Shown here: positions 2,321 to 48,715 of the stretch, piece after piece
Layout: every line of letters starts with the position of its first letter
Numbering within the stretch: position 1 is the first letter of the stretch
Assembly: GCF_002113885.1 (NCBI RefSeq)
Contig: NW_018405342.1
Coordinates: forward strand, 2,095,303-2,159,302
Source of the DNA: Mizuhopecten yessoensis
Lineage: Eukaryota
Length of the DNA: 64,000 bases
Direction of reading: 5' to 3'
The notes under the pieces: generated by a model
What the model was told of the DNA's origin: nothing
Seen by the model: only the letters and a program-made list of their open reading frames with translations
Databases searched by the model: none
Program-made: the position numbers and the translations under genes

Positions 2321-2433
2321 TTACGACAACTCTCTAGCATACTGTGCGGGGAAGAGACCTTCACAACCGTTTAGTTTTCTCCCCTTACACCATCCAAGCT
2401 CATCCTCCATCTTGATCTTGATAAATTTCTCAC
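2321..2433 (-). CDS. PACSIN: PACSIN last coding exon (GEKFIKIKMEDELGWCKGRKLNGCEGLFPAQYARELS*)
   Basis: TGTCCAG|GT acceptor, TAA at 2323-2321; SH3 Trp and GxxPxxY motifs. Confidence 0.94.
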
Positions 2434-5400
2434 CTGGACAGAAATCACAAAATCATTTCACTGGGGTTGAGAAAGATCTCTGCCATAAAACCAACTTAAT
2501 GCTCTATATCATCTTACATAATAAACTTGTTATTTTTGTTAGGAAGTTATCTCCCTTTTTTATTGATGTTGGTGGGGTTCGGGCAAAGGGAGAGTTGCCT
2601 CCCACCCCCTAATATTTTCATGCTTAAAATTCTACAGCTTCTGGAGGGATTCTCCTCCTTCTGAACAGCCTTACATGGGCATTCCAATCTGGACCCCTGG
2701 TTCAATTAGGCCTCAAGCAATGGCCTTAGGTTTGTATGAAAAATTATGATAAAGAAGGTGGGAATAATCCTTGAAAATTAAATGTGATGATATATTTGAT
2801 GCACTGCTTTCACAGACATGGTGTTTTTCAAAAAAGTTTTTTTGTGATTCATATAGGATCGTACCAACCTAATGTCAGGGTGAGTTCGTCGTCATCCTCA
2901 GACTTCGGTATGTAGTCGTACAGAACCTCCATTTCTATATGACATTCTGCACCGTCTTCCTCATCCTCAAAGGGGTTAGGTGTGCTCGCAGTCTCTAACC
3001 TCACCTGCTCCGGGACGCTGATAAAGGGAAACAAACACATAAAAGATTTACACTGATGGTAATGTGAATAAAACATCTCAAAGATGTGAATAAAGTATCT
3101 CAAATATTTAGACTGATGGTAATGTGAATAAAGTATCTCAAAGATTTAGACTGATGGCAATGTGAATAAAGCATCTCAAATATTTAGACTGATGGTAATG
3201 TGAATAAAGTATCTCAAAGATTTAATCTGATGGTAATGTGAATACAGCATCTCAAAGATTCAGACTGATGGCAATGTGAATAAAGTATAAAGTAAATGAA
3301 ATTTCATAATGGACTATTCGTTTGAATTGGAAGAATTCAAATGTGTCTTCAGGGGTGAATGAGTTAAAGACAGTATCACAGGAGTAATTACACCAACTTC
3401 AGAAGCATATACTACAGAGTTGAGTGATCCAGAAGCTGACAGTAGCAACTGAAGCTGGACAAGGTCCTTGTTCAACAAAAAAGTCAACTGAAGCTGGACA
3501 AGGTCCTTGTTCAACAAAAAAGTCAAATACTAACTCAAATTTATCAATAGCATGTTGTCTATATTACGCAAGCAAAAACATTCTGAAAATTGTATACAGA
3601 CAGAAATAATTAATGTATAACCATTGTTTGTCAAATAGTTCGGTAAGTATCATAATTAATGCATATTAAAATACATCATACCATGTATAGTGGTGATCTA
3701 ATATGCTATATCGGAGGTCAGAAATCAGGAAATTGTAGTACTCATGCAGGAATAGATCCAAACAGTTATTCAAGGCCTGAACTAGACATTAAATCTTAGA
3801 TGTAATACTACCTAACATTGTTACTTGTGATCATATGCCCATGCATGGACAGCATAACCTAAGTTAGTTAATTAGTACTAAGATAGGGGTTACAGTTTAG
3901 CATCGTCATAACATCATTCTTTTGAATAAATGAAGAAGAAAAGCAATTAATCACATCTTGATGCTGAAGAGTCTGTTCAAATACAAAAAGTGCTTAAAAT
4001 TCTCAAACAGCCACAGTCCACTGCAAGGTCTAGGGTGTCCAATCCACAGGGTCTTGAAATAACTGTGCAGTAGTGTTGTTTCAATAAATCAATCTAATCA
4101 ATGATAAATAATTTTATCTTTGACTATGACTGACTTAACAAACAGTTTAACCTTAACTCAAGTCAAGTTTTACCATAAACTCTGATCAAAACAAATCCTG
4201 CCAAAAACTAGGTCTTAACAAAATTATTCATCACATTATACCCATTTTGGTGAATGCCTCTCAATTTATTTCCCTTTTATTTTATGATCGATCAATGATC
4301 AATCTTCGATCGTTTGAGAAATATTGACGACTGATCTTGAATTTTGAAGTGATTCTCAACACTACTGCACAGATGTTGTACATCTCAGAGCAAGCTTTAG
4401 TAAATCATCACTTATTAAACTGGTATATGAATGCGTGTGATGTAAAACAAAGAACATATGGACAGATAACTGTGTGAATTCACCATAAAGACTTCAATTT
4501 TTAAAGAAATTTCAATATAACCCTGTAATATTTAATTACAATGACATGGAGGATGAATAAGTTTGGTTCCAGATATGAACTCTATCTGTAAAATTGATAT
4601 AAAGGGGGTGGGCTTATTACCGGTAAAACATAGGTATCAAATAGGTTTCTTAATTACTACATCATAATATCTTATATTTCTACTGAACTGTTACAGAAAG
4701 TGTACATAAGTTCTAATTGAAGTCGTTATTGTAGCAATTATGGTAGTGTATCGCATACATGTAAATGAGAATGTTCTAGAAATCTGTGGACAAAATACAT
4801 AGGAGTGTAAATAGAGTTTATGGCAATACAAAGAATTACGGGAATAAACGATGTATATAGTGTAACAGTGATTACAGATAAAAATGTAGAAATTCAATAC
4901 AGTGGGGTTTTAGGTAAGCAGATTTTTGTAATATATTTTTGTGAAAAAAAGGGATCCACAAATTTAATTAGGCTATATGACTGAAATGCTCTGAAGAAGA
5001 ATAAATACATAAATATGTTATCTTTAAGACAATGTGATATGTGATCTATGTTCTTAACCCTTTCACCCCTATGAAACTTTAGTAGACTCTACCATGCATT
5101 GATCTGGATGAGTCCATTATAGTCTACAGTGTTTAAAGGGTTAACAGTATGTAATGGGAACATATTTACATCTTCTAGGCATGGCTACATAGTAAAACCA
5201 CCTTATAATGCCATTCTTTTTATTGTCGCTTTGGACGATTGGGTCTCTCAAATCAAGAAAAAATAACTCTAAAAAGTCTCTCATTAATCCTTTTGTAACA
5301 TTATAAACCATTGCCTAACCCAATAAAACACTGTATATCTACTGAATAAATGATGGCAATATAACCGGATCCTACTGCGATACACAATGTCAGCTAGGTC

Positions 5401-8400
5401 CTAATATTCATTAAAGTAAGTCGGTTTTCTAAGATAATGGTAGAATGGCTGACAGGCAAAGGAAGAATATCGTCATTATCATTTAAGGAGTCAAAAATAA
5501 CCAGCAATCAAACTTGCAAATTGAAAATTTATAGAGAAAAGAAATTATCTTCGAAAATTGCATTTTATTTATGCAAAATGATTCCCCTTCAATACAAAGT
5601 GGCATGCCCCTGAAAATATTATCAATAAGACAATTTCACAAGTACTGTCAAGTACTGTTGTTTTGTTAGACTTGTACTGGGTTTGGAATAGGGTATGCAT
5701 ACAGTAGTTTTGGTGGTTATTTCATGAACTCCCAAAATATTGGAAACGTTAACATCATGGTATGATTATAGTTATTTATGCTCGTTATAACTAGAATCCA
5801 CAGTTTGTTCGTAGCCATATGTTACACCATTCTTATGGACAAAAGACAACATGTTTACTGATTGGTCAATAACAAAGAGGTCAGTAGATTTCAAGAGGAA
5901 CTCATCGGTCATTTCAGAGTTTACATTGCTGTATGATACATTTCCTGGACATTTCTGGAAATATTATCTTCATCAAAAATTTCATTTTTTTTTTACCAGA
6001 CTTATGTCTGTGAACTTGAACATCAATGTTTGGAACAATCAATGACAGCTACCAAACTCACTTTTGCAGTTGAATCAGGGTTTTTTTAAAAGAAAAGTAT
6101 CTTTCGACTCTTCTCATTAAAACGCGATCAACATTTTGTCTTCTGTGCAAAAACTAAATCAAAAATGCAATTAACATTCACTAAAAAGATGAACATTCGC
6201 AAATAAATAAAAATGCTTTATATATATATTCACAGATGAACTTCTTTCAATATTCAGCAAAACGTTATCCTTGAACTCACCCCTACAATTTTATACTGGA
6301 CCTGCCCAGTCATTGATTTGGTAAGGTTCAAATGTGACTTTAGGGGTGAATGGACCAGCTAAACCTCATCATACTACTACAGCTTCTGGTAGGCCTGTTG
6401 ATACTGTATCAACATAGTGCCTAAAGCTAGGGATCTATATTTTGTTTTTCCATTTTCTGATTTTTTTGATGTGTTAACTTGTAGCAATGCTTTCTTTCAG
6501 TATTACATGTAGTCATGTACTGAAAATTTGAAGTTCATATATAAATAATATGCAAACCTTAATTAAACATTCCAATTAAATTACTGAAAACATTCACAAA
6601 ATGCAATAATAATAATAATAATATAACTAAGAGTGGGAGGTTCAACAGAAGATAACAAGCCCATTCTAAACAATGCCCTGATGCAATATATACAAATACA
6701 GGTCTAAACTGGTTACGTTTGTTTGGTTGGTGTTTTACTTGAGAGCCGATCTCCTCCCAAGTCTGTGTCATCATCATCATCTGAACCAAACGGATTTAAT
6801 TTCTCGTCATAAGACTTTTTCCTGGTAGATTGGAAGCGAGAAATTGTCATTGCACAGGTGTTTTGTACATCGAAATTAATGAAGACATTTCGAAAAAATA
6901 TTGATTGTTTAAAAATAAAAATAATAATATACAAGACGGTTTAAAGAACATAATTATCAAAATTGTGCCTAAAAACGAAATCCCTGTAAGGAAAAAATAA
7001 CATTACCATACTACAACAGTAAAACAATATCTGACAGGAGTGAAATACAACACCACTACAAAACGGTTTCATTAAAATGAATAAATAAAATCATTAAACC
7101 AAAAACTGTATAGTTTCACTAACCACACAAATACAGAATCCAATATACATACATTGGTATCTGACTCCAAAAGTCAAACGGACTGCAAAAATAACTCAAT
7201 TTTGTAAAGCCAGTCAACTTTGTTTAAGAGTTATCTCCCTTTGTTCATATATTAACAATGTTGCTCTACCTCTGTCACACAAATGTTTTACTTGGCTTGC
7301 ACTAGTAGACTCTACTATACATTTATCTGGGTGAGTCCATTATAGTCTACAGTGGTGAAAGGGTTAAATGATGCCCAATTGTGGAAACAAGTAACTCCTA
7401 TTAAAATGATTCAAATGATTTTTCTTTTTTTTTGAAATTTATATTAGCACCATCACGCTTTAGATAATGTACTGCTTATTGAAGTTTCTCATTGTACACT
7501 AAGTAAAAAGCCCTCCAAAGTGCGTGTGCTTAAAACAAATTTGTTTACATTAGTTCACATCTATTAGTGAATTAAAAATACCTAACTCCCAGGTCCAAAA
7601 AAAACGTTTTTCTTACTTTCTACCCATAAAAATTATAATTTTTCGCAGTCTCCCCACTACCTGTCCAATGCTTAACCCTTAACTCAAAACAAGAAATTTC
7701 CCATCCACCCATTCAACAATCACACTTCCAACTCAACCCGACATAACAGATGACACCCAAGTCTTAAAATTTCAGTTTTTCCTTTTTGTCCATCCATGAC
7801 CATTACCATTTCCTTCGAAATCCCTTGACACCTGTCCAGTATATAGGTAACCCTTAATTTAAAACAATTGATTTCCCCCCACCCATCACATTTTCGAGTC
7901 CACCACCACACTTCAGTACTGACCTGCTGACGTCCACCTCGGCCCTCGTCTCCACCACATTGCTGCTGTAGCTGGATTCTTGCTGTGAGGGCACGGGTTG
8001 GTAGGTATCGTTGTGGGTATCACTGTGGGTGTTGGAGGTGTTGGAGGTGCGAGATGTTCGGGGCGACGAATTGTTGAAAGAGTTGGTGTCGGTTGAGGGT
8101 TGGTACACATCACCCTTGTGACGTATACTGGTGATCGTGATTCCGTCCCCGCCAAGCTGCGACTTCTTCTCCTTCTTGGATATGTTTGCCAGGTCGGGAG
8201 AGTATTCCTGTACACAGAATCATCAGTAATACATGTATATGTGTTTACTTTTTCACCCTTTCATATCAAAACTCGTCTTACCCAGTCATTGATTTGGTCA
8301 GGTTCAAAAGGGACTTTAGGGATGAAAGAGTTAGGTTCAAATGTGACTTTAGGAGTGATTGAGTTAAAGATAGAGAATTCCACTTGCAGGGTTATAAATT

Positions 8401-11400
8401 GGAGTTATACCCAATACTCCACTAATGGATCTACTCTGATCATAATCTCAAGAATGGAATATTCCTTTCACAAACAGGTATGAAATAGTCTTTTTCTCTC
8501 AAATTGGACCTTATAAATCATGTCAATTTATGGTGAGAAACTAATTCACTACATATCTCATTCTTGATAGAACCTAAATACTGACTTACAAGCAGGGATT
8601 GGGGCTAAAACTAGCTCCGTTATATTTTTGACGTTTTCTTCTTCACAATTTGGGTAAAATTATTATCTTTTATTTTTCATATTTATTTCAGTATAGTTCT
8701 ACCAAATATATATGAAGCATTTTTATTTTCAAATTTCTAACTTTAGGAGCTGCATTACCTTATACAGACAAAATCATGGCTAGAAATACAAATTATTGAA
8801 GAGGTGGTCAATGTGAGATAAATGTAAAGTTGTAGGATACATCACAAAAAGACATGGTCCGTACCTCAAATGTGGGCCAATTCATGGGCATGTCAGCACC
8901 GCTCTTCTGAGACCACCAGGCTAGGTCACTGTCTGAATCCGCCTTACTGATCGTGTCGTGTAGATCTGAGTATAACTTGGAAAACCTACAACAGGTCATA
9001 GGAGGTTACAATGAGTTTATTTTAGACATAACACATTGCTTTTTCATGATTTATCTACATATACCATGTCTGATGTTTATAGCGAACGCCAATGGTGGCT
9101 GGGAGATGCTCCGAAAACTTAGACGGATGGACAAACACAAAACACACAAGGTGAATACTAAACATAATCTTTACTTCATTCCATTAAGGCAATAATAACA
9201 TGGAGTTTATTAAGACCCCCTGCATACTAACAACCAGGCCAACAGTTTATATCAGTTCACATATTTTGTTTCATATTTGTGAAGATAAATAAAGTTTATA
9301 TGTATCTAAAATAAATTCACCTACCTGGTAAATTACAGAACCCAGCAACCATGTATATATAAATTCATTGTTCCATGAAACAATTACAAAGTTCAGGATG
9401 TTTTCCAATAATTAACACGTACACCACAAAGAAGAGGGAAATTACATTAAGAGCCTAGGACTGTGGATCAATAGAAGGAAGTATCAACATTTATCAAAAT
9501 AAATTTCCCGAGGCAGTGAAACAAACAATACACACTTCCACCAGCTGTCACGGAAATCATAAAAGGCAGTCAATTCAAAATTGAACTTCTTATAGTTCCT
9601 AGAAGCTGAACATTTTTATCCTCAGCTCTCATCCATATATATTTTTTGTAATTTTTGTACCATCTTCTTTCTGAATTACTATTGAACACTACAGGATTTT
9701 TAATGAAAGGTACCTACTTATTACATATACAAGGAAGGGCATTTCTAAAAACTCTGATAACATGGGCCACCTTGATGTCTAGGGACACAGGCAAGTCATA
9801 TATAAGGGAGATAACTCATATAAATCTGTAAATTTACCTGGGTTCTGACGACAGGTCCAGACACTCGTGAAGCACAAACATTGTTTTCTTGAAAAATTCC
9901 ATTCTTTCCCTCTCAAAGTTTTGGCATTTTTCAAATACCTAGTTAAAGATATAACAATTTTAGTCATTAACATGTTTACTACATAACCATGCTATACAAA
10001 TGTAAATACGAATATGAAGACAACGGTAACGAGGTGTCTGCTGTCTCTAATGATCTCCCTTGTAGGTGTTAAGTATTATATCTCTTGCTTAAATAACACT
10101 GAACTGCTTTTCCTTGTATGTATATTCCTATATCACTAAGTGTATATAAATTGTTCTATAATAATTATTCAATTGATAAAATGATGTGAAGTTGTCTCAC
10201 TTTGGTCTTCATAATGATTTTTCATTTATCGATATTTGATTTTTTGTCAATGAAATATATTGACATCAAAATATAACTGTCTATGCCTCTAATAAATTCC
10301 ACTTAAATTATCTGCATTATTTGTACAGCTGAAGTTGATTCCCTATTTACTATTTCCCTTGACGACAGACAATATCTGAACCATTCAAAATCCATAATTA
10401 AATTTGCCTTCTTAAACTTCAGTTTATCTCCCTTGGTTGTTATCTCCCTTGTCCAGATATTTTACCTCATTCATGTCCTCTATATACTTTGCGTTGTAAC
10501 CGTTTAGATCATTCAAGCAAGCTTCGTATTTATCCTTGGACTGTTCTACATCAGCCTGGTATTTTCGTAATTTATCTTGGATCTTTTTCAACTGAAAATA
10601 TACAACATAATATTTATGATTAATGTTTATTGAAACTAAATGTCACAGTACTTGAACTGAACAAATATGCTGTATTGACAGTAAAAATTCTATTAGAAAA
10701 TATTGGTTGTGCGAGCAAAAATGTTCAAATATGGCTTCAGAATTTGCTGAATTTGCAAATTAGTATTGTACACTTCTGATATGAACATGACTATAGAGTA
10801 TATATGAGTTAATATTATCTTAATACAGCTTCACCTGAAAAAAACAGTCAATCAATTACTCTAAACACAGCTGTAATATCAAATCTCATTGGTATATTGA
10901 TTAACTCTAATATTATTTAAGAAACTGTTTTATCAAATTTCTTTCTTTTATATATTTTTATTATATATGTATATATCAATTCCTTCACATGGACATTTAA
11001 TCCTTTTTTATTACATATTTTACTATATACATACTATATATATATTTTTACTATATAGATATTTTGCCTGTGCCTTATGTATACACATATACATTGCATG
11101 AGCAATGTTTAACCGTTAATTATTTAAAGCAGTTAACAGCTGCTTTTGACAGAATGGAATGGAGGATGACTCAGCTACATTTCTAACAGCAACACCCAAG
11201 GTCTTTCAACCAGACGTGAGTTCGTCCGGTGCAGAATGTCACCGAAGCAAAAAATTCCTTCTGATCTTGCAGGGAAAATGTCAGGAAATGCCATAATATA
11301 TTAATGTTTAGATAAATTGTCTACTACTTGGATAATAGCCGTGCCAGACTTCCCAAAAACAACATTTATGTTCAAGTTCAAGGAACGCTCTGTTACACAC

Positions 11401-14400
11401 TGCAAACTTGTATTAGAGGACTAGAAATACAAAAATCTTCCAATATAGATATCCATGAAATATATACAACGATAAACAGCTTTTTAGAGTTTATGTGCAA
11501 AAAGGTTTACAGTGAAATGTTTATTTAATTTGTTCATTTTCTGTACTTTAAAATGCATTAAACTAAAGTAAAATCAGTCCACATGTAATTTAAGCATACC
11601 AGAAATAGTTTCATACAATAATATTTTTTTTTAAATGAGTCAACTTATCAATTGTCATCATAAAATCTAGTCAACTTTGAGATGTATACTGCCTTTTGTA
11701 TATATTCTGTGACATGGAGACTTGAAGATGTATGCTACGGTATACATATTTATTACATACTTACTAATAAATACGGGGATTTTGTATATGCGATACGACA
11801 CAATTGCTCTAACCCATATCAGCCCTCGCCGTATCACACCCCAAAACCCGTATCAGCCCGCAAAACCCATATCACACCCCTTTTGGAAAAAAAATCGTTT
11901 TTCAATATTTCAAAAATAAAAATAAAGCATAAGATAGTAGTTTTTATTAGTAATTATGTAATAAACAGAATAAAACACGCCTTTTTCCATATCACACCCA
12001 GTATCAATCCTCGACCAATATCAGACCTCCGGCCTTCGGCCCTTGGGCTGATATTGCAGTCTCGGGTGGATACTGGGTGTGATATGGAAAAAGGCATGTA
12101 TTATTCTCTATATATTATGTGATATGGAGACTTAAGTATGTATGATACCTTATACATATATATTATGTGATATGGAGACTTAAGGATGTATGATACCTTA
12201 TACATATATATTATGTGATATGGAGACTTAAGGATGTATGTTACCTTACTGTGACAAGGAGTCACCTAAGGATGTATTCTATCTACCTTACATATATATT
12301 CTGTGACAAGGAAACTTAAGGATGCATGCTACCTTACTCTGACATGGAGACATAAGGATGTATTGTAGCTACCTTACATATATATTCTGTGACAAGGACA
12401 CTTAAGGATGTATGTTACCTTACTGTGACATCGATACTTCAGGATATATATACTACCTTACATATATTCTGTGACATTGAAACTTAAGGATGTATGCTAC
12501 CTTACTGTGACATTGAATTGTTCAGGATGTATGCTACCTTACTGTGACATTGAATTGTTCAGGATGTATGCTACCTTACTGTGACATTGCATTGTTAAGG
12601 ATGTATGCTACCTTACTGTGACATTGCATTGTTAAGGATGTATGCTACCTTACTGTGAGCTGTATTTCCTACACAGAAGAGTTCCACATTAACTGTAAAG
12701 TATTTTCTATATATGTTAATTTTGACCGGTTTAAGACCTGCATTAGGTTTAATTTTGGGTGACTTTTATTAATGTATATGGACATCTATAAAACCACTTG
12801 TCAAATAAGATAAATGTTAGCTTCAATTCACAAGGTCTTTATTCACAAAAATTATTATACCTGTCTAAAATGACCACTTATGGAGACCATGTCCAGTTTT
12901 TAATTCTCAGTTGGGTGACCTAATATAGCAAATTATATATACAGTGGTACCTATCTAAAAAGCATCTATTAAAACCTAATCAGCCTTTATTCTAACTTAC
13001 ATTGGGTGGTCTTAATTGACAGAGTTTCTTGGAACTGCAACAATACCATACTGATACATATTGAGTTTTGTAAAACAAAACAAAAACAAAAAATATTATG
13101 TAGTTATACAACTTCGATTTTGTCAATTTTGCTGTACATATACCTATATTATGTATACATGCTACTTTAAAAGACAATAGCAGACATCGCGATTCCACAT
13201 TTAAAATTTTCTGGGGAGAATTTATTAACACCATAAAGTCTGTTATAGTATAAACACCACACACAGCTGTTGTGTTTACTTACACTACCTACAACAGGAA
13301 AGTCTGATTATGATCACATGCTGCACATGCTGATGTTTAAACCTGATGACAAATGTGTCTGTAAATACATCCTGCTGTGTGCAGGCCCCTAAGCTCTGTG
13401 ATATTAACATCACGCTCTGTAATAAGCCCACCCCTTTTTTGAACAGATTTTTACACTTTTAGGTTTACTGCAGAGAAACTCAATTGTAAGTTGCAAGTTT
13501 ATAATAAAGTGTATATAAGAAGTTCCATTGCAACCTTATGGGCCCCCTACTTCCTGGATCCACCATAGTGATGTCGCTGGATACAAATGTATACATACTT
13601 AGTGTTGGCACTAGTCTTCTTACAATCAGCTCAGATCATGAGCAGATAATAGCATTAATATCATCTACATTATTGTATGTATTGTAATTAAGTCATGGTT
13701 TTATTATATATAAGTACATGTCTACATGTTTCAACATTTGACGTTTAAACTTGTTAAGAACCTACAGCTAATACACAGGAAGTGTTTCTGGATCATTGCA
13801 TAAGAATTTGGTAATTATTGTGCTGTAAATGTTTGTCTGAATGGAATGTTTTTTTCTCACCTATTTAGCTTTGGCGTATTTTTATACAACATACTTGCAT
13901 CAGGTTCAGGGAGAGCAGAGGAGGAGTAGGGTGGGTCTAGTGGGTGACTGGGATGGAAGAATGGTGGGTATAGTTGGGTTGCAATGAGGGGTGCATGGGT
14001 GTGTGCTGGGACTATCAGGTTTCAGGTGGAAGGTAAACAGACCAAGGTTGACACAACATAGTGTGGTCAGGTGTGGGAGTGTCTGAGTGTTTGTGTATGC
14101 TGTGGTGGGAGGTTGAATAGTCAGGTGTGGGGTGGGGTGTAATGGTCGGGTGTGGGAGAGTCTGAGTGTTTGTGTATGCTGGGGTGGGATGTTGAATAGT
14201 CAGGTGTGGGGTGGGGTAGTGGTCAGGGGTGGGAGGGTCTGAGTGTTTGTGTATGCTGTGGGGGGATGTTGCATAGTCAGGTGTGGGGTGGGGTAATGGT
14301 CAGGTTTGGGAGAGTCTGAGTGTTTGTGTATGCTGGGGTGGGATGTTGAATAGTCAGGTGTGGGTTGGGGTAATGGTCAGGTGTGGGAGTGTCTGAGTGG

Positions 14401-38400: not shown

Positions 38401-41400
38401 AGTTTCAGTCAAGATTTATTAATCCAGTCACTGAAATTAATATGGGTGTCTTGTGCCAATATCCAGTTACCACTAATCCAGTTGTCCCAATTATATAACC
38501 AGGCACCCCTAGTCTAGTTGTCCCAGTAATATATATCCAGGCACCCCTAATCTAGTTGTCCCAGTTATATATATCCAGGCACCCCTAATCTAGTTGTCCC
38601 AATTATATAACCAGGCACCCCTAGTCTAGTTGTCCCAGTAATATATATCCAGGGACCCCTAATCTAGTTGTCCCAGTTATCCAGTTACTACGAATATAGT
38701 TGCCCAGATATATATCCTGGCACCCCTAATCTAGTTGTCCCATTATCTTGTCAACACAAAACTGGTTATCCCACTATCCAGTCACCACTTAACTGGTTGT
38801 CCCACTATCGAGTCACCACTAAACTGGTTGTCCCACTATCTAGTCACCACTAAACTGGTTGTCCCACTATCAAGTCACCACTAAACTGGTTATCCCACTA
38901 TCCAGTCATCACTAATCTAGTTGTCCCATTATCTTGTCAACACAAAACTGGTTATCCCACTATCCAGTCACCACTAAACTGGTTGTCCCACTATCCAGTC
39001 ACCACTAAACTGGTTGTCCCACTATCCAGTCACCCCTAAACTGATTATCCCTCTATCCAGTCACCACTTAACCGGGGTATCCCACTTTCCAGTCACCACT
39101 AAACTGGTTGTCCCACTATCCAGTCACCACTAAACTGGTTGTCCCACTATCCAGTCACCCCTAAACTGATTATCCCTCTATCCAGTCACCACTTAACCGG
39201 GGTATCCCACTTTCCAGTCACCACTAAACTGGTTGTCCCACTATCTAGTCACCACTAAACTGGTTGTCCCACTATCCAGTCACCACTAAACTGATTATCC
39301 CTCTATCCAGTCACCACTTAACCGGGGTATCCCACTTTCCAGTCACCACTAAACTGGTTGTCCCACTATCTAGTCACCACTAAACTGGTTATCCCACTAT
39401 CCAGTCACCACTAAACTGATTATCCCTCTATCCAGTCACCACTTAACCGGGGTATCCCACTATCCAGTCGTCACTAAACTGGTTATCCCACTATCCAGTC
39501 ACCACTAATCTGTAGTCCCACTATCCAGTCACCACTTAACTGGTTATCCCACTATCCAGTCACCACTAAAATGGTTATCCCACTATCCAGTCACCACTAA
39601 ACTGGTTGTCCCACTATCTAGTCACCACTAAACTTTTTGTCCCACTATCTAGTCACCACTAAACTGGTTGTCCCACTATCCAGTCACCACAAAACTGGTT
39701 ATCCCACTATCCAGTCACCACTAATCTGGAGTCCCACTATCCAGTCACCACTTAACTGGTTATCCCACTATCTAGTCACCACTAAACTGGTTGTCCCACT
39801 ATCCAGTCACCACTAAACTGATTATCCCTCTATCCAATCACCACTTAACCGGGGTATCCCACTATCCAGTCACCACTAAACTGGTTATCCCACTATCCAG
39901 TCACCACTAAAATGGTTGTCCCACTATCTAGTCACCACTAATATGGTTATCCCACTATCCAGTCACCACTAAACTGATTATCCCACTATCCCGTAACCAC
40001 TAAAATGGTTGTCCCACTATCTAGTCACCACTAAACTGGTTGTCCCACGATCCAGTCACCACTAAACTGGTTATCCCACTATCCAGTCCCCACTAAAATG
40101 GTTGTCCCACTATCTAGTCACCCCTAAACTGGTTATCCCACTATCCAGTCACCACTAATCTGTAGTCCCACTATCCAGTCAGCACTTAACTGGTTATCCC
40201 ACTATCTAGTCACCACGAAACTGGTTATCCCACTATCTAGTCACCACTAAACTGGTTATCCCACTATCCAATCACCACTTAACCGGGGTATCCCACTATC
40301 CAGTCGTCACTAAACTGGTTATCCCACTATCCAGTCACCACTAATCTGGAGTCCCACTATCCAGTCACCACTTAACTGGTTATCCCACTATCCAGTCACC
40401 ACTAAACAGATTATCCCACTATCCAGTCACCACTTAACTGGTTGTCCCACTATCTAGTCACCACTAAACTGGTTGTCCCACGATCCAGTCACCACTAAAC
40501 TGATTATCCCTCTATCCAATCCCCCCTTAACCGGGGTATCCCACTATCCAGTCACCACTAAACTGCTTATCCCACTATCCAGTCACCACTAATCTGTAGT
40601 CCCACTATCCAGTCAGCACTTAACTGGTTATCCCACTATCTAGTCACCACTAAACTGGTTATCCCACTATCCAGTCACCACTAACCTGGTTGTTCCACCT
40701 ACCTGTATCTTAGGGGATAGATTTTCCTTCTATATAGCCAACTAGTGTTAAGAGGATATATTGTCCTTTTTATTCAGATTGTTCTAAAAATCCAACTTTC
40801 TCATAAATTACACAACCCAGTCACAGTCCCTGAAATGGACCAATGTGTCCACTCCATTTTATATTAACTAGAAAACATATAATGAATTAATTAATCAAAC
40901 GTTTCCACCACAATTTATAGTTTAAATTATACACATCATTGATGAACTGAAAACCAAATAATCAGCATATAGATTCAAATAATATTTTTTGAATATAAAG
41001 TATCAATTTGTTTGCTTTGTAAGGATTTCTTTTTTATGATTTATGATAATGATTAATGTAATATACAGAGATCCATTGACCTCACACAGGTATGTATGTA
41101 ACCATTGCAGATATATCTCCCGACAGCCCAGGCAATCTGTAGAGTCAGCATTATAGACTATTATATGCAGCTTTGTCTCTGTCACACTAAAACTCTGTGG
41201 AGAAGAAAATAAGTGAGCACAGCGATTCAGATTCCAGTGAATTTAACAGTGACGAGGGAATTCCCTATCACTAGTCTGTCAGGGGGTATTGATCTTTACC
41301 AGAACTCCCAATTAAATTAAATCAAACAAATAAGCACGTTCAGGATCCATCAAAGACAACAGTATGATTTAACCACACAAACCCTACTTCATCAAAATCA

Positions 41401-44400
41401 ATTACATTCTGGGTAAATCAATATCATTTCCTTTTCGACGACACATTGCCCATTTTAACCCAAAGTGCTTGGACCGTGAACAAAACCCCCCACATACTTT
41501 ATACCTATTATGAGAAAGCACTCAGTAATAAGCCCACCCCTTTGCTCATCATATTTTACAAATGTAAGGTCAAACCTAAAGACATTTCCTGCACTTAAAT
41601 GATCTGGAATTCTCAAAATAAACCTGGTTTTAATGTTACCATTTTCCTTAAAGGATATGATATAGGGCTCTCTGGGTTTATCAGCTGTCAAATATCACAT
41701 GTACAAATGTAGGTGTTACCACTGCAGGAACTGATCAGATACCAGAGAGTTCATACCAAACAGTGCTAAATTCTGCCTCTCCCTAGCTACTACTCATGTT
41801 AAAAACACATGCAAAATGCTCTTCCATTTCTCTGACTCCTCTCTATCGTAAATCTGTCACCTGTTTTTCTCTCTCTAGCAATGTCTTAAGATTGCTCACA
41901 AACATCAAGACCAGAATACTTATGTATAGACTTTTACTGGCGATATATAATTTTCGGAATAGATGATATGAAGATTTTTACCAGTTATTTCTGTAATTTA
42001 TATATGAAAAAATCTTCAGTTTTTTGTCCACTTTTTTTTTTAAGTAGTCAGAGTACTTACTGCAATATTATGGTACACACGTACATATATATACAGTATA
42101 GCACTTAACTACCATAAACAATCGCTCCATTCTATTAGCAAATCAATTAAAACAAACTGCGTGAAAACAATGCTTTACAATGCAATCTGTCCAACTTTAT
42201 TTAAGCCCTGCCTTTTTACGACAGTTCACTCCAAAGATTTATTGACATTAGAATATAAAGTTCATAACATGCTTTCATGTCAAAATTTGTTAAGCCCACT
42301 CCCTACTTTGAGTTATAGATTACGTGCTGGCCCTTTTGGGCTTTTGTAAAATAATTATGGTAACATTCCCCTACCCCACCTCCCCTTCTACATTTTGATT
42401 TTTTTTTAAGTCTTGTAAATTATCCAAGCAAATCTTGATTCGTCAGCCTTAACCTATCGTCATCTGTACATGTAACTTAACTCATTCACCCCTGAAGACA
42501 CATTTGAACTCTTCCAATTCAAAAGTAGGAATAGTATAATGAAAATTTCAGCGGTAAATTAGTTTATCACATTTTCTAGATCTTGATAAGCTACTGTTCA
42601 CATTATAAATCACTAAATCTGATAAATGTCACAATAGATAGATATATATCTTATTCCTGACAGATTTCCCTAGTGAGAGACAGTGTGACCGAGCTACAGA
42701 TATCTGACATTGTAATTGCCTTTTTGTATCAGAACTAAGAATTGAAAAGGAAAGATGAAAGCTCTTGGGTCAAAGCAATATAAGTAAATTTTTTATGTCA
42801 CTGGCATTGACCCTTTCACCACTGTAGACCATAATGGACTCATCCAGATCAATGCATGGTAGAGTCTACTAAAGTTACGTAGGGGCCAAAGGGTTAGGCT
42901 TAATCAAGACTGGTACAGCATATCTCCAGTTTTATTCTTACCTCAGCAGACTCATCCAACAGTTGAATCCAAAGTTTAATGATCTAATCAGTATCTCAAT
43001 GGTCTATTACCTATCTGAAGGCTAGGTATAATCTGTGTATTCATAAATGGCTTCATCTGTATGTCACAGGCTCATAATCCTTATCTCACAGTCAAAGACT
43101 CTGTCATACTTCAAGGGTTAATATCATTTGTATTACAAAAGCTTATAATCCTTATCTCATGGTCAAAGACTCTGTCATACTTCAAGGGTTGGTCTCATTT
43201 GTATTACAAAAGCTTATAATCCTTATCTCATAGTCAAAGTCTCATTCATACTTCAAGGGTTGATCTCATTTGTATTTCAAAAGCTTATAATCCTTATCTC
43301 ATAGTCAAAGGCTCTGTCATACTTCAAGGGTTGGTCTCATTTGTATTACAAAAGAATACAAAAGCTTATAATCCTTATCTCACAGTCAAAGTCTCATTCA
43401 TACTTCAAGGGTTGGTCTCATTTGTATTACAAAAGCTTATCTCACAGTCAAAGTCTCAGTCATACTTCAAGGGTTGGTCTCATTTGTATAACAAAAGCTT
43501 ATAATCCTTATCTTACAGTCAAAGACTCATTCATGCTTCAAGGGTTGGTCTCATTTGTATTACAAAAGTTTATAATCCTTATCTCACAGTCAAAGACTCA
43601 TTCACGCTTCAAGGGGTGGTCCCATTTGTATAACAAAAGCTTATAATCTTTATATAACAGTCAAAGACTCTGTCATACTTCAAGGGTTGGTCTCATTTGT
43701 ATTACAAAAGTTTATAATTCTTATCTAACAGTCAAAGAATCATTCATGATTCAAGGGTTGGTCTCATTTGTATTACAAAAGCTTATCTCACAGTCAAAGT
43801 CTCAGTCATAGTTCAAGGGTTGGTCTCATTTGTATAACAAAAGCTCATAATCCTTATCTAACAGTCAAAGACTCTGTCATACTTCAAGGGTGTGTCTCAT
43901 TTGTATAACAAAAGAATACAAAAGCTGATAATCCTTAGCTTACAGTCAAAGACTCAATCATGCTTCAAGGGTTGGTCTCCTTTGTATAACAAAAACTTAT
44001 AATCCTTATCTTACAGTCAAAGACTCTGTCATACTTCAAGGGGGTGTCTCATTTGTATTACAAAAGTTTATAATTCTTATCTAACAGTCAAAGAATCATT
44101 CATGATTCAAGGGTTGGTCTCATTTGTATTACAAAAGTTTATAATTCTTATCTAACAGTCAAAGAATCATTCATGATTCAAGGGTTGGTCTCATTTGTAT
44201 TACAAAAGTTTATAATCCTTATCTCACAGTCAAAGACTCATCCATACTTCAAGGGTTGGTCTCATTTGTATTACAAAAGAATACAAAAGCTTATAATCCT
44301 TATCTCACAGTCAAAGTCTCATTCATGCTTCAAGGGTTGGTCTCATTTGTATAACAAAAGCTTATAATCCTTATCTAACAGTCAAAGACTCTGTCATACT

Positions 44401-46412
44401 TCAAGGGTGTGTCTCATTTGTATTACAAAAGTTTATAATTCTTATCTAACAGTCAAAGAATCATTCATGATTCAAGGGTTGGTCTCATTTGTATTACAAA
44501 AGTTTATAATCCTTATCTCACAGTCAAAGACTCATCCATACTTCAAGGGTTGGTCTCATTTGTATTACAAAAGCTTATTTAATCCTCATCTTACATTTAA
44601 CTATCAATGGTCTCATCCAAAGCTCACCGCTCTCATGCAAATCAGAATGTACAATGTATACAGGACTCTGATAAATTACACATGTAACCAACTGGTCATC
44701 TATTTCCCAAGTAACTACATATACACTAGGAGTTCAGGACTACAGATTAGTCCAGTGCTACAGCAAAATGGAAATATTCTTTAGCAAAGTCTGTAACAAT
44801 TGCAAGTGACCAGATAGTTCAATAACGTGAGAAACTCTCCCTCTATATAAAGGCTGAATCCTGACACCTGCCACAGCACACCCATGCATGTTTGTGAGAA
44901 CAGGATTAAAGAATTATCGTAAAAAATACCCTGGAGTGCTTATGTTAATGTGGTCATTTAATCACTATGATTCCAACCCAAGACTAATTTACCAGTGCTC
45001 AACCAACTGAGCTAAGGCCACAACGAAAATTACTTGTGTTTCCACTATTATCCTCAGAAAAATAAAGATAGGTAGGTAGGCAATTTTTATTTATTCTTGA
45101 AAACATGTTTACTATGCTTATATAAAGCATGAGTCCTCACTTACACAGTGCATATCACTAAATGCCAATACAAACATTATGGTAGGTAGGGTTAGCCAAA
45201 ACACAAGACTTTTTATTTGGCCTAAAGGGAAATCCTCTCCAGCAGAGTCAGTAACAAGTAACAGCACTATGATACAAGACAGTTAGGACTACTGTACCTT
45301 CTTGAAACCATCTTCCATCTCTTTTGTTTCCTTGAAATGCATCAGAGATTTGTGGTAATTGTCCTTCTGCCATTGTTTGATGTCTGCGTAAGCCTTGGAC
45401 ATGAGATTCTCCCCGACCAGTGTGTGGAGGTTTGCCACACTATCAGCCTCTTCTAGCAATCCTCGCCATGCTCCTTGTGTTGTGGCATACTCGGGTCCTA
45501 CACGCATATAGAAAGTCATTATTAAATAACCATTCTTCCTAAACTTTTACATAACTTTGGATTGGGATTCTTTATATTCGATGCTTCACATGAGTTAAGC
45601 TGTTTAGATTACTTTTTTAAGGTTTTCAGATACAAAACAGTTTTAAATTTAACCCATTTTAAATATGTTTATGATAAATATATTGCATCACTCAGTAAAA
45701 AAGGAAACAGCAGCCTTGAAGCTCCTGGAGTTACACTCTTTTGTGTTCTCTGCACCACTGGATTATGTCGAGGGTAATGTGGAAGCCACACGGCTAGCTA
45801 TTTGATTGGTTTCAGGTGAGCTAAAAACCGACCAATTGCTAAGCTGATACCCGTTCTTTGAAGAAAACAGTGGAACAGGACCTGACCAGATTTCAAAGCT
45901 TGTCTATTTTACAATTATGCCATGAGGCGTGATTTTCTTGATGTACATAGTATACCAAAGGATCAATCTAGTCTTCTTGTATCATCCCAAAGTGGGGCAC
46001 ACTTAGCCCTCAATTTTGTCATGACATGTTTCAGGGATGCAGAGAATGTAAGTGAGCATGGCTCCTGGAGTATTGGATGAGGAAATGACAAACTAACACT
46101 TTCTAAATTAATTGCAAACTGAATTTACATGTTAAATATATCTAAATTTCAACCTTACCAATTGAATAAAAAACAATTGTGTGAGAGGAGACAATTTTTG
46201 GTACCTTTGTCTAAGTATTCGTTCCACCTTTTAGTCCACTGTGAGAGCTGTTTGGCATAGTTCTTTTCTATCTCGCTCCTCGACTCTATGAGACTTCTAA
46301 GGCTTTCACACATTTTGTGTCCATTGTCAACACGCTTCACTGTCCGCTGGTACTTGCCCACCTCCCAAAAGCTATCGCTAGAGGGCTGAATCGATTCCTC
46401 ATAGTTTGTCAT
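2321..46412 (-). CDS. PACSIN: PACSIN/syndapin (protein kinase C and casein kinase substrate in neurons), spliced CDS join(46412-46205,45497-45298,33415-33278,10591-10466,9938-9838,8985-8865,8207-7924,6821-6717,3017-2869,2433-2321), 514 aa
   Basis: All 10 exons have AG/GT boundaries and matching phases (intron phases 1,0,0,0,2,0,2,2,1); total 1545 nt. PACSIN signatures: SDSFWEVGKYQRTVKRVDNG, GPEY, WQKDNYHK..FKETKEMEDGFKKAQKPW, AKKEYHTAC, YIEDMNEVFEKCQ, GADMPMNWPTFEEYSPD, two NPF motifs, and a C-terminal SH3 with EDELGWCKG..GLFPAQY. Confidence 0.96.
2869..3017 (-). CDS. PACSIN: PACSIN coding exon 9 (second NPF motif and first half of SH3: PNPFEDEEDG...VLYDYIPKSEDDDELTLTL)
   Basis: TTTATCAG|C acceptor, TTAG|GTTGGT donor; 149 nt, phase 2-1. 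Confidence 0.92.
3043..3287. repeat. 38-bp minisatellite, about 6 copies (AGATTTAGACTGATGGTAATGTGAATAAAGTATCTCAA)
   Basis: CTGATGG recurs every 38 bp between about 3111 and 3263. Confidence 0.9.
3446..3526. repeat. 39-bp perfect tandem duplication
   Basis: CAACTGAAGCTGGACAAGGTCCTTGTTCAACAAAAAAGT x2. Confidence 0.9.
5054..5144. mobile_element. 91-bp TTAA-bounded MITE, subfamily A (also 42807-42897 inverted, 7303-7367 partial)
   Basis: TTAACCCTTTCACC...AAAGGGTTAA; shared core AGTAGACTCTACCATGCATTGATCTGGATGAGTCCATTAT. Confidence 0.8.
6717..6821 (-). CDS. PACSIN: PACSIN coding exon 8, symmetric NPF-containing exon (KKSYDEKLNPFGSDDDDDTDLGGDRLSSKTPTKQ), candidate cassette exon
   Basis: ACCAG|G acceptor, AC|GTAACC donor; 105 nt, phase 2-2; NPF followed by an acidic run. 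Confidence 0.8.
7924..8207 (-). CDS. PACSIN: PACSIN coding exon 7 (EYSPDLANISKKEKK... S/T/N-rich linker)
   Basis: ACAG|GAATAC acceptor, CAG|GTCAGT donor; 284 nt open frame, phase 0-2. Confidence 0.9.
8865..8985 (-). CDS. PACSIN: PACSIN coding exon 6 (FSKLYSDLHDTISKADSDSDLAWWSQKSGADMPMNWPTFE; end of F-BAR)
   Basis: TGTAG|G acceptor, GAG|GTACGG donor; 121 nt; DLxWW..G..M.MNWPxFE motif. Confidence 0.95.
9838..9938 (-). CDS. PACSIN: PACSIN coding exon 5 (VFEKCQNFERERMEFFKKTMFVLHECLDLSSEP)
   Basis: CTAG|GTA acceptor, CAG|GTAAAT donor; 101 nt, phase 0-2. Confidence 0.95.
10466..10591 (-). CDS. PACSIN: PACSIN coding exon 4 (LKKIQDKLRKYQADVEQSKDKYEACLNDLNGYNAKYIEDMNE); absent from the ORF track
   Basis: TTTTCAG|TTG acceptor, GAG|GTAAAA donor; 126 nt; matches the PACSIN YxEDMxxVF helix. 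Confidence 0.95.
11750..12112. mobile_element. Non-autonomous palindromic element (Crypton-like) inserted in a minisatellite
   Basis: 22-bp inverted repeat at 11750-11771 and 11943-11964 (21/22 identical), then a 140-bp hairpin at 11967-12107 centred on GGCCTTCGGCC. It is CpG-rich relative to its flanks, and the same minisatellite unit lies on both sides. Confidence 0.65.
12110..12657. repeat. 37/49-bp minisatellite (TTACTGTGACATTGAATTGTTCAGGATGTATGCTACC and longer variants); a detached unit lies at 11680-11750
   Basis: Repeated AGGATGTATG.TACCTTAC core. Confidence 0.9.
14062..15400. repeat. G-rich ~76-bp minisatellite, about 15 copies, with ~40-bp degenerate units at the right edge
   Basis: TCAGGTGTGGGAGTGTCTGAGTGTTTGTGTATGCTGTGGTGGGATGTTGAATAGTCAGGTGTGGGGTGGGGTAATGG repeated. 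Confidence 0.95.
19274..20020. repeat. 39/41-bp minisatellite, about 18 copies (CTCTGTAGTGGTCTATCCTGCTCTTATTAAGTAATCACC)
   Basis: Direct tandem periodicity; degenerate units at 19060-19270. Confidence 0.95.
20210..20296 (-). mobile_element. tRNA-derived SINE head
   Basis: Minus strand GGTAGCTCAATTGGTTAGAG (A box) ... GGGTTCAAATCCCGG (B box), followed by non-tRNA sequence. The acceptor and anticodon stems pair poorly, so it is not a tRNA gene. A weaker relic lies at 44965-45017. Confidence 0.65.
21296..21402. repeat. 21-bp tandem repeat x5 (CAGTGTGGACCTATCTTTACC)
   Basis: Direct periodicity; explains the repetitive ORFs on both strands. Confidence 0.95.
23271..24115 (+). mobile_element. Non-autonomous Helentron-type (HINE / DINE-1-like / pearl-like) element with internal ~146-bp satellite repeats
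   Basis: 5' AACAAGAGGCCCATGGGCC..GGTCACCTGAG; about 4.5 central repeats (AAAATAACAACACTTTGTCAGGACCATGAG at about 23492, 23638, 23785, 23931); a (GACG/GAC)n microsatellite; 3' hairpin AGGTCACTTGAGCTAAAGCTCAGGTGACCT followed by an A run. Confidence 0.88.
25703..25793. mobile_element. 91-bp TTAA-bounded MITE, subfamily B (also 34597-34687, 6271-6353, 8244-8367)
   Basis: TTAACCCATTCACC...GGGGTGAATGAGTTAA; core TCACATYTGAACCTYACCAAATCAAAG.CTGKGCAAGTCCAG. Confidence 0.8.
26545..27655. mobile_element. 1.1-kb non-autonomous TIR DNA transposon with 5-bp TSD (CATAT)
   Basis: Perfect 15-bp TIR CAGGGTTCTCCCCAG / CTGGGGAGAACCCTG; subterminal CCGTATCASCTT x4; no transposase ORF. Confidence 0.88.
29300..29802. 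repeat. Degenerate ~22-30-bp tandem array (ATGACCTTCACACATTCAAGGGTC)
   Basis: Recurrent CATTCAA and ATGACCTT motifs. Confidence 0.85.
30203..30645. repeat. Highly degenerate ~60-bp tandem array
   Basis: AAATGAAGATGGGTGCTCT...AGGGTAAATATGG recurs about 7 times. Confidence 0.6.
31064..31165. repeat. ~31-bp tandem repeat x3 (AGAACATTGATAACCCAG...)
   Basis: Direct periodicity. Confidence 0.8.
33278..33415 (-). CDS. PACSIN: PACSIN coding exon 3 (AQKPWEKKY...AVSQDQ)
   Basis: TTTCAG|GCC acceptor, CAG|GTAATG donor; 138 nt, phase 0-0. Confidence 0.95.
35930..36330. repeat. ~60-bp minisatellite, about 6 copies (GGGTCTATGGACCAATGACTGAGAAACCAAGACCAGTACTATAGAGAAACCAGGAAGCACT)
   Basis: Direct periodicity; source of the repetitive ORF 36106-36321. 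Confidence 0.92.
36444..36621. mobile_element. 178-bp MITE with CAG termini and 5-bp TSD (ACCTT)
   Basis: CAGGGGTGTAAAATTCC ... GAAATTGTACACTTCTG imperfect TIR; ACCTT immediately on both sides. Confidence 0.65.
38460..40695. repeat. 31-bp minisatellite, over 60 copies (TCACCACTAAACTGGTTGTCCCACTATCCAG), with a 125-bp higher-order repeat
   Basis: Direct periodicity; the variant unit CCGGGGTAT occurs at 39072, 39197, 39322 and 39447. Confidence 0.97.
43065..44578. repeat. 71-bp minisatellite, about 21 copies
   Basis: ATAATCCTTATCTCACAGTCAAAGACTCTGTCATACTTCAAGGGTTGGTCTCATTTGTATTACAAAAGCTT repeated; explains the ORFs at 43341, 44173 and 44407. Confidence 0.97.
45298..45497 (-). CDS. PACSIN: PACSIN coding exon 2 (GPEYATTQGAW...EMEDGFKK, includes wedge loop)
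   Basis: TGTAG|GACCC acceptor, AAG|GTACAG donor; 200 nt. Confidence 0.95.
46205..46412 (-). CDS. PACSIN: PACSIN coding exon 1 (F-BAR N-terminus, MTNYEESIQPSSDSFWEVGKY...WNEYLDK); the exon itself starts at 46500 with 5' UTR
   Basis: ATG at 46412, acceptor TTTTTCAG at 46501, donor AAAG|GTAC at 46204; 208 nt. Confidence 0.95.
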
Positions 46413-47710
46413 GATGAACACTTTTGTTTTACTATTTCCTAAAGTTTGTATTGACTTTAAATTCTTCAATTGCCGTTTCTGGAATTACCACATCAGAAGT
46501 CTGAAAAATGAAATGATAGTTTGAAACTGAAATATACATTTTGGTAAATCAAAGTTTATTTTTTTATTACGTCACTGTGTATTTTTTCCTTAACCTTGGA
46601 TGGAAAGTTGTTGTATTTTTAAATGTGTACCTTAATTAATAAAACTAACCTACCAAAAGATTTGGAGTGATAAAAAGATAAACATATATATAGCCCATAG
46701 GCCTCATTACATACATACATGTATATGTATATGATCACAAGTCCAGTGAGAGCTATATAGTAATGTACTATGTACATTATTACGTACAGGTCAACCAGGA
46801 TTGGGTAGTAATTTAAAGCTACTACTCAAGGTCAATGTTTAAGTCAACATTTCAGCAAATCTCAGTAAACATTTCAACTATCCCCAACACTTAAACATGG
46901 TACATATTCAGTAAATAGTCTACCAACTACCCAGGGATATCAAATGCTATTGAATTAACAATACATGTGTATAATCAAATCTACTAATTTATACGTACAT
47001 AACACAGGTATAGTACCCAGTCTCCGGCTATATTACAATCTGACCACTCCATATAACGTCATGACAACTGTAGCTTTCAAACAAAGCTCAAACTGCTAAG
47101 TCACGATAAAGAATATGACCAGTATTTCAATTTAGTGTGATCCATTAGCAGCTAATTCATTGAAGGATGTGTGTCGTACTCCATGTGTAATGCATGACAG
47201 AAATATAAGTAAAGATAGGATACAAATTGTTCTAACTGTTGCAATTGGATTTTTTCCACACATTGTCACCAATTATGCACTAATATATACACTGTCATAT
47301 TCCACAATAATATGGCATATATATATATATATATATATAAGGAAGAATATTTAGCCTGGTATAAAAGGGATGAGTGCTAATTCATGTCTATAGAGTGAAT
47401 ATGCAAAGCATGTAAGTGATACATATATATATATATATGTGTTTTTAATTTAAAATTTTGAAAATTTACAGTAACAAACAAAACAGTATTTATATCAAAG
47501 GTTACATAAAGAATGTGCATGCATTACATTGATATTATTTAATCATGTTATAAATACACTTTGTAGAATTATTGACAAGTATAACATATTATTGACATAA
47601 ATGTTGACATATATAATGGGATAGCTATATACATGTAGATCCAGTACCATCAGGCATCAGATGCAGTTACATATCAATAATAGCAGCAATAACTGATTAC
47701 CATTATCAAT

Positions 47711-47802
47711 TTAAACTCGTTTACCCTTGAAATTTCATAATGAACTATTTCAACCTTTGAACTGGGAGAGTTCAAATGTGTCCTCAGGGGTGAATGATTT
47801 AA
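47711..47802. mobile_element. 91-bp TTAA-bounded MITE, subfamily C (also 35250-35340, 42477-42566 inverted, 3297-3367 partial)
   Basis: Core AATTTCATAATG...CCTTTGAATTGGAAGAGTTCAAATGTGTC and the same AGGGGTGAATGAGTTAA terminus. Confidence 0.78.
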
Positions 47803-48559
47803 TGTACACATGCTAAAAAATATACACTACATATCCAACAGAAAGGTATAAATTATATACTTTTACGGCTCAGACAATACCTATAGCTAATAGCGTACAG
47901 CTTACAAGCAAGCACAAATGGTACCTGTTATAGAAATACTTGAACCTATAAATAGATCTTTAAAACACTCCTCTATTGACGTAACTGCATTTGTTGACTT
48001 TGCAGATAAAATGACTATAATATATACAAATAAATGTTATCTTAAAATTTAACTTGAAATGTGATACTGTACTTTGTGCATCCCTCTATTACATACATGT
48101 ACCATGTCCACTTGTCATATCTTATAATTATTAATCTAAAAATTTTGAGTAGGCAATGATAACAATATTGAGATATGTTATGAATGTGTATATTAATCTA
48201 TAGTCTCATTGATAAATTACAGGTAGCAGTCATTTTTTCACTTATCATACTACAGGTATATCCAGATAATCCAATATGCTTTCATACTAAGAATTCCAAG
48301 GAGTGGCTCTAACTATCCCTATTAAATTTTACATACTCGTCATGTTTCCTCTCCTCTCCCTACTCCGGAATTTTCACCCCCAGTTTTTAATCTTGAACCT
48401 GTCTGCTGTATCCCAATACCATATTCATGAACTTCAATACATTTTATTGATATTATTAATAAATTTAAATGACAGTATTTCTATTTTCAGAATTTCGGTT
48501 CATCAAAATACGAAATGAATTGAAGCTACTGTAGTGACTGTTTTTATTAGACATATGAT

Positions 48560-48715
48560 CACAAGAGTCTGAAATTCTGCCAAAATTAATAATAACAGTA
48601 ATACGGACTAATACAAAAAAAACACTATAATATGCCTAAAATATTTTTTAAGGATAATGTAGTGTTTTTTTTGTATTACTGTTATTAATTTTTGACAGAA
48701 TTTCAGACACCTGTG
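48560..48715. mobile_element. 156-bp foldback MITE flanked by 7-bp direct repeat ATATGAT
   Basis: CACAAGAGTCTGAAATTCTGCCAAAATTAAT... / ...ATTAATTTTTGACAGAATTTCAGACACCTGTG; palindromic over almost its whole length. Confidence 0.8.

Follow-up and report, generated by a model that had tools for sequence, protein, structure and literature searches.

A 91-bp miniature piggyBac family of Mizuhopecten yessoensis resides almost exclusively in CpG-poor DNA

A 64-kb stretch of Mizuhopecten yessoensis DNA (contig NW_018405342.1, positions 2,095,303 to 2,159,302; hereafter the window), minisatellite-rich and of 36% GC in a genome of 988 Mb, carries short TTAA-bounded elements with a consensus length of 91 bp in the introns of a PACSIN-like gene. 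The original prediction described them as three diverged subfamilies (here A, B and C) confined to this gene. Such confinement is true of the window but is a window effect: two copies lie left of the window, and a search requiring both 16-bp ends exactly returned 1832 sites genome-wide (control 0), spread over hundreds of contigs. An element specific to PACSIN was rejected on this ground. By contrast, confinement to gene bodies as such was upheld genome-wide, more strongly than had been claimed, although it is not peculiar to PACSIN. That this family in particular keeps almost exclusively to CpG-poor gene bodies is well measured, and the likeliest cause is insertion aimed at such DNA, to which we assign a probability of roughly 0.55.

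Copies were counted in large contigs, within 79 stretches of 10 kb whose positions were chosen blindly (59 plus a replicate of 20; 753 kb without N). An observed-to-expected CpG ratio (CpG o/e) below 0.6 per stretch or flank was taken as CpG-poor, with an identical threshold in both samples. In the first sample, 26 of 28 copies (three of the 26 being local duplicates) were located in CpG-poor stretches, which made up 26 of 59 stretches and 44% of the DNA, and the replicate placed 15 of 16 copies in such DNA (9 of 20 stretches). Pooling both samples assigned 41 of 44 copies to CpG-poor stretches, corresponding to 123 versus 7 copies per Mb, a difference of about 17-fold. Counting stretches rather than copies, 17 of 35 CpG-poor stretches contained the element, compared with 3 of 44 CpG-normal ones (stretch-level Fisher p=4e-5). 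Flanks of two sets of genome-wide matches were CpG-poor in 25 of 25 (among them a copy from the window itself) and 26 of 29 cases, while 43% of 166 background windows were so. Of the home contig 195 kb were covered; all 14 matches there fell into one CpG-poor domain whose left border lies some 4 kb before the window and whose right border is at window position ~49-50 kb, with zero copies in the ~140 kb outside this domain. The earlier observation that copies are missing past the PACSIN promoter was borne out, as none occurred from 47.8 kb to the contig end, 31 kb past the window.

The bias does not await old age. Among copies grouped by divergence from their consensus (a mix of blind and end-selected copies), flanks were CpG-poor in 36 of 36 cases at 0-4%, 45 of 56 at 4-8%, 29 of 32 at 8-12% and 24 of 28 above 12%. 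TTAA sites were slightly denser in CpG-normal than in CpG-poor blind DNA (8.5 versus 7.4 per kb), and likewise upstream of PACSIN than within its body (10.1 versus 8.8 per kb). Total repeat cover was 8.9% in CpG-normal and 10.5% in CpG-poor DNA, and three repeat families were confined to CpG-normal stretches (CpG-poor in 0 of 8, 0 of 7 and 0 of 5), indicating that CpG-normal DNA is not closed to insertion. Other full-length piggyBac families had CpG-poor flanks in 7 of 16 copies, as expected by chance (one end was assumed for two of the 16). An autonomous piggyBac family sharing the element's ends (the partner, see below) had a CpG-poor flank in 4 of 4 copies (0.53, 0.48, 0.24 and 0.20). Combined, the fully biased youngest copies, the unbiased sister piggyBacs and the partner flanks favour an insertion preference specific to this family.

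Methylation in oyster is described as mainly intragenic, intronic and located in housekeeping genes, and as correlating with CpG o/e (PMC3840415). Given this pattern and the CpG o/e values, the CpG-poor domains are likely to be methylated gene bodies. Both RNA-checked loci are introns: PACSIN and a second locus (L291), where RNA contigs splice across two copies in the intron of another gene.

We therefore favour, on the strength of the comparison of youngest copies and sister families, a scheme in which a transposase supplied in trans would cut and paste the 91-bp element at TTAA. Low CpG o/e would mark the germline-methylated bodies of constitutively expressed genes, and the bias would be set at insertion, via a gene-body chromatin feature (5-methylcytosine, trimethylated histone H3 lysine 36 (H3K36me3) or the elongating polymerase), and not by later loss. 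The CpG-free consensuses would then reflect the origin of every new master copy from methylated DNA. The masters may be held at 91 bp because both ends of so short a DNA need helical phase, which is the weakest step. A similar arrangement is described for HIV-1, whose integration is biased through LEDGF to H3K36me3-marked transcribed genes (PMC4588226), but there a retroviral integrase acts with a known tether, whereas the tether here is putative.

Several observations weigh against this scheme. No new or polymorphic insertion was found: among the 15 joints listed of 302, searched in contigs of three DNA runs, no allele without the element appeared, even for a consensus-identical copy. All tested copies thus seem fixed, and targeting and fast selection are not directly separable. 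Pfam detected no chromatin-reader domain in a 516-aa part of the partner transposase (its N-terminal part was inspected by eye only). For the laboratory piggyBac, from Trichoplusia, a preference for CpG islands, start sites and active loci is described (PMC4588226). That is the reverse of the compartment that the 91-bp family occupies, namely CpG-poor gene bodies as distinct from CpG-normal upstream DNA. The term gene body itself is drawn from the CpG proxy and the two loci checked with RNA; among the CpG-poor blind stretches, 18 of 35 lacked a copy, and some copies are local duplicates. One of the partner's four copies has a CpG-normal 5' flank (0.88), and subfamilies B and C had no exact partner among the 46 of 123 transposase matches inspected. 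Finally, other repeat families are also sorted by CpG domain, in both directions (blind stretches L056-L129 and the window), so that the bias may be a genome-wide property. Two of these lean toward CpG-poor DNA (7 of 9 and 5 of 6 stretches), and the second of them, presumably Helentron-like, is itself rich in CpG and contains GGAC repeats.

Fast selection is the chief rival to aimed insertion, and we regard it as unlikely. Copies would enter TTAA sites at random and be removed quickly outside methylated gene bodies, for example where they disturb regulation in open chromatin, methylated introns acting as a buffer. It draws on a report that gene-body methylation suppresses intragenic transposon activity in Nematostella (PMC13345969), and on the tested copies all seeming to be present in other individuals, so that the youngest had already passed selection. 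However, the repeat load of CpG-normal DNA is similar, 9 of 16 full-length copies from other piggyBac families sit there, the element offers no CpG for silencing, and the bias does not rise from the youngest (36 of 36) to the oldest copies (24 of 28). More unlikely still is an explanation without any specific tether, in which excision, repair or germline accessibility differ between compartments or the element hops locally from donors in transcribed genes. The clumping of copies (up to 7 per 10 kb) with half of the CpG-poor stretches empty fits such hopping, and because piggyBac excision is described as usually footprint-free (PMC2872659), removal would be traceless; yet distance-based hopping would not be expected to stop sharply at the PACSIN start site and shortly past its 3' end, and copies occur on hundreds of contigs.

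Two further readings are very improbable. Retention of copies for a hairpin that functions in pre-mRNA (splicing, editing or small RNA) is suggested by consensuses that fold to long hairpins (-37 to -47 kcal/mol) and by an inner inverted repeat of the C core that exceeds chance (z -2.6 and -2.9), but it is already largely contradicted. Terminal repeats and core decay equally in blind copies (0.084 versus 0.086), so that the proposed selection on a hairpin RNA finds no support in resident copies, which decay neutrally after insertion; 16 of 51 copies have changed net length; both orientations occur inside PACSIN; the folding of the A and B cores does not stand out clearly from that of shuffles (z -0.9 to -1.7); and contig depth from RNA over the element cannot show expression. 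The inner repeat of C (z about -2.7) may be relevant to the mobility of masters instead. Elements that attract methylation and so deplete CpG nearby would reverse cause and effect, as has been argued for intronic transposons driving gene-body methylation in cnidarians (PMC8857917). Here, though, the element itself is CpG-free, the CpG-poor domain tracks the limits of the gene, ending at the start site and extending over 17 kb that hold no copy (8.4-25.7 kb), and the youngest copies already lie within fully depleted DNA.

Whether transposons in methylated gene bodies are aimed there, tolerated there or causal is a question raised in invertebrate epigenetics (PMC8857917, PMC13345969). It becomes testable with existing resequencing and methylome data through a CpG-free element whose copies, tens of thousands in number, can be dated and whose sister piggyBacs are unbiased. 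If the bias does lie in the transposase, this would be a natural DNA transposase with intron- rather than promoter-directed integration. The fuller proposal of a piggyBac lineage tethered to methylated transcribed gene bodies, with a CpG-free derivative marking housekeeping introns and minimal elements on a helical length ladder (91, ~101 bp), is tentative and stands at odds well below even.

By its anatomy the family almost certainly consists of piggyBac/TTAA MITEs (miniature inverted-repeat transposable elements). Such MITEs, for example MER75 and MER85, are non-autonomous and TTAA-flanked, with short terminal inverted repeats (TIRs) taken from piggyBac, and as an element type the family is ordinary. 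The division into three classes was confirmed, since 156 of 157 distinct copies sort into consensuses A, B and C, each 91 bp long (83 bp between the TTAAs) and without CpG. The cores had also been said to align without gaps at the same offset, which is the case for B and C (70 of 91 ungapped), whereas the A core is one base off with compensating gaps. Relatedness of the cores exceeds chance for A-C and B-C (1 and 0 of 1000 shuffles scoring as high) compared with 108 for A-B; the ends are near-constant among subfamilies, while the cores are identical at 21-30 of 44 positions at best offset. Blind copies diverge from their own consensus by 8.8%. TTAA stands at both ends of all three consensuses and of 114 of the 119 end-to-end copies (some of them picked by their ends), and 360 of 408 TTAA positions are intact in blind copies. 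The TIRs comprise 13 bp inside TTAA, starting CCCT in A and CTCA or CCCA in B and C, a start variant also found at the ends of piggyBacs of the same genome. As to a putative duplication of the TTAA target, the joined flanks of two copies align over the junction to uninterrupted repeats, at 67-75% identity. The 5' termini of Kolobok inside TTAA are purine-purine and those of Sola3 are GAG, and both element types were ruled out, the termini here being C-C/T-C and matching a piggyBac.

Among the 50 perfect-end sites listed of 1832, 40 were 91 bp and the others 87-96 bp, and an A-type pattern gave 1476 strand matches genome-wide. The blind density of 58 copies per Mb (44 in 753 kb) corresponds very roughly to 40,000-70,000 copies per genome, provided that the sampled contigs are typical. 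No arrays of whole elements were seen among the copies examined; there was one partial tandem (8244 with 8326, in the window) and one adjacent pair (L215/L216). Given its abundance, the family is likely to be present, unnamed, in de novo repeat libraries. In the literature searched, with most subscription journals, Repbase and Dfam outside its coverage, neither the 91-bp family nor any piggyBac MITE confined to gene bodies was described.

The piggyBac assignment is further supported by the partner. A Pfam search gave 123 piggyBac transposase matches (116 of 260 candidates scored), and ends were inspected around 46 of them (30 plus 16). The partner encodes a DDE_Tnp_1_7 transposase whose nearest named proteins are bivalve piggyBac transposases (60-61% identity); homologues of full length exist at 60-66% identity. 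The left end of A agrees with the partner's 5' end at 22 of the first 24 bases, and the right end of A with the partner's 3' end at 25 of the first 28. Pairing the ends crosswise gives weaker matches (20/30 and 19/30, compared with 23 and 25 for the matched ones). The two thus share the same 17-bp ends plus 7-11 further end-specific bases. Only four large copies (L131, L132, L046 and L133; G000 C4544, C1832, C5465 and C4476) and two pieces on tiny contigs were found. Full-length copies of 2592 and 2623 bp are both frameshifted, and a third, 5'-truncated copy retains a 516-aa open frame; the partner is now broken. The partner differs from the MITE in being coding, 2.6 kb long and furnished with internal direct repeats at both ends, which the MITE does not have. 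The A and C cores were not detected in the partner sequence and the B core gave a marginal score (5 of 200 shuffles), and no derivation of the MITE core from the partner was found; the core is an orphan. The ends of B and C match the A partner at 15 of 17 positions and one end of a second family (L037, L276 and L277) at 16 of 17, with no match further in. Another piggyBac family (L027-L032; G000 C2206, C2392, C3514, C3628, C5325 and C5555) was probably active recently, because its six copies score identically with an open 591-aa frame; its flanks belong to both CpG domains.

The closest described kind of element is CMITE, the piggyBac-like MITEs of coral (Wang et al. 2010, PMC2872659), which the 91-bp family resembles in its working without being a CMITE. 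As described there, CMITEs are of uniform size near 100 bp with TTAA ends and 13-14-bp TIRs from CCCTTT, and their ends match one autonomous piggyBac while the origin of the core is unknown. Metagenome contigs contained 54 stretches (48 distinct sites) with the 16-bp ends of subfamily A around a CMITE core, 18 of these sites being 100 bp, 16 being 101 bp and 8 being 102 bp long. Homology of the cores to that of CMITE was rejected, with 878, 701 and 736 of 1000 shuffles scoring as high for A, B and C. Length with both TTAAs also differs (91 bp versus 100-102 bp), and so do other features: ends are more conserved than core here and the reverse in CMITE, the consensus is CpG-free here and CpG-rich there, copy numbers are ~50,000 versus ~1,600, and the part of the coral description consulted (PMC2872659) mentions no gene-body bias. 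The CMITE-type metagenome elements (L160-L213 and L299-L301) are 100-102 bp long, some in tandem arrays and one set in a bacterial bin; the three CMITE-type matches in GTDB all come from one bin. The CMITE-type DNA in metagenome contigs and in the bacterial bin is likely to be animal host DNA. Flank CpG o/e was below 0.6 in 32 of the 48 distinct sites, a count without a background set, and no correlation was seen between the CpG count of a copy and its flank o/e (rho 0.19, p 0.19, 48 sites). Viral contigs gave 0 matches to two patterns.

Length was claimed to be strictly conserved. The consensus length is indeed 91 bp in all three subfamilies. Of 51 blind full copies, however, 16 differ: 35 are 91 bp and 44 are 90-92 bp. 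Among end-to-end copies (partly end-selected), 77 of 112 are 91 bp, with 47 indels per 708 substitutions. At this rate, B and C would show zero net length change with a chance of 0.24, and A relative to the others with a chance of 0.16, jointly ~0.04, which lends weak support to the proposed geometric limit; allowing +-1 bp, however, raises the joint chance to 0.18. The same 16-bp ends bound variants of 100, 101 and 102 bp in another animal, about one helical turn longer, a single comparison that is suggestive of phasing. Helical phasing of the masters is plausible, if at somewhat less than even odds, but two lengths fall short of a periodicity. In Paramecium, the sizes of short internal eliminated sequences (IESs) are described as following a 10-bp periodicity imposed by PiggyMac, the domesticated piggyBac that cuts them (PMC3464196). 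The IESs differ in being directly selected for excision in each generation (PMC3464196), whereas the MITEs offer two lengths only (91 and 100-102 bp), and unlike the IESs, long off-length MITE copies had no +10 peak among the 50 listed of 110 sites.

Searches with patterns that detect A-type ends, and not the CTCATT of B and C, revealed no amplified off-length A-ended subfamily at 54-84 or 97-127 bp. They returned 110 sites at 97-127 bp and 104 at 54-84 bp, and by eye 47 and 48, respectively, of the 50 listed in each class were indel derivatives of A. Among the 50 short ones listed, 15 were 81 bp, six were 82 bp and one was 80 bp. The excess at 81 bp was rejected as a sign of helical phasing: microhomology in the A consensus peaks at a 10-base lag (8 sites versus 0-4 at other lags), the deletion sites are scattered, and 101 bp shows no corresponding peak, with three family copies among the 50 listed. 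These short self-matches of A yield repeated independent 10-bp deletions, and their periodicity may reflect bending or repeated binding sites.

Each of the 11 coordinates originally reported in the window proved to be a family member within a PACSIN intron. A hidden Markov model built from nine of them and run over the window (E<0.01) recovered the 11 copies together with a 38-42-bp duplicated right end at ~8326-8367 as a twelfth piece, and nothing further. End to end, seven copies measure 91 bp and one 90 bp; of the others, two are truncated and one has damage at its ends. The five reported as exactly 91 bp are so, ungapped to their consensus: subfamily A at 5054..5144 (minus strand, 87/91, TTAA at both ends) and 42807..42897 (plus, 86/91), subfamily B at 25703..25793 (minus, 85/91) and 34597..34687 (minus, 83/91), both with TTAA at both ends, and subfamily C at 35250..35340 (plus, 79/91). 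Also 91 bp are a diverged B copy at 8244..8334 (plus, 74/91), likewise ungapped to its own consensus, and a C copy in intron 1 at 47712..47802 (plus, 82/91). The 90-bp copy belongs to C (42477..42566, minus, 82/89, 2 gaps). The remainder are a C copy at 3296..3367 (plus, 68/76) that has lost its left end beside a 38-bp tandem array, a B copy damaged at both ends (6268..6358, plus), an A copy truncated to consensus positions 1-69 (7299..7367, minus, 61/69) and the duplicated B right end in tandem with the 8244 copy (8326..8367, plus, 34/42), which the original prediction lacked. TTAA is kept at both ends in only three of the 12 pieces. The terminus said to be common to the copies is exact in full at only four copy ends in the window, and the description as palindromic applies in part, self-complementarity being 29-53% in register-true full copies. 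Left of the window, at distances of ~2.0 and 0.9 kb, are two further A copies (G000:C2015:2093297 and 2094442). Both lie downstream of the stop codon of PACSIN and within the CpG-poor domain.

The PACSIN-like gene (F-BAR and SH3; minus strand) has its body at 2324..49744 and hosts all window copies; its CpG o/e is 0.34 compared with 0.82 upstream. RNA contigs from two runs splice 46500 to 49715 and 45496 to 46204. The former splice implies a 5' exon at about 49715-49744 (minus), near the ~49-50 kb where the CpG-depleted domain stops, which puts the copy at 47711 in intron 1 and the start near 49.75 kb. The exon 46204..46500 (minus) carries the start of the F-BAR domain (FCH, 46158-46484), and the SH3-coding exon that ends the coding sequence lies at 2324..2452 (minus).

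Dense minisatellite arrays, mostly in PACSIN introns and with units of 26, 31, 38, 39, 40, 71, 76-77 and 146 bp, occupy window positions 3024-3290, 12100-12520, 14055-15350, 19070-20100, 23447-24170, 38460-40680, 42906-44640, 50450-51590 and 57819-58293; one truncates the copy at 3297, and another begins 9 bp past the copy at 42807. Different inverted-repeat elements with arms of 33-76 bp were observed at 54721-56816 and 61085-61275, upstream of the PACSIN start, and at 48539-48736 in intron 1. The family at 54.7-56.8 kb is found in both CpG domains (two of five stretches low).

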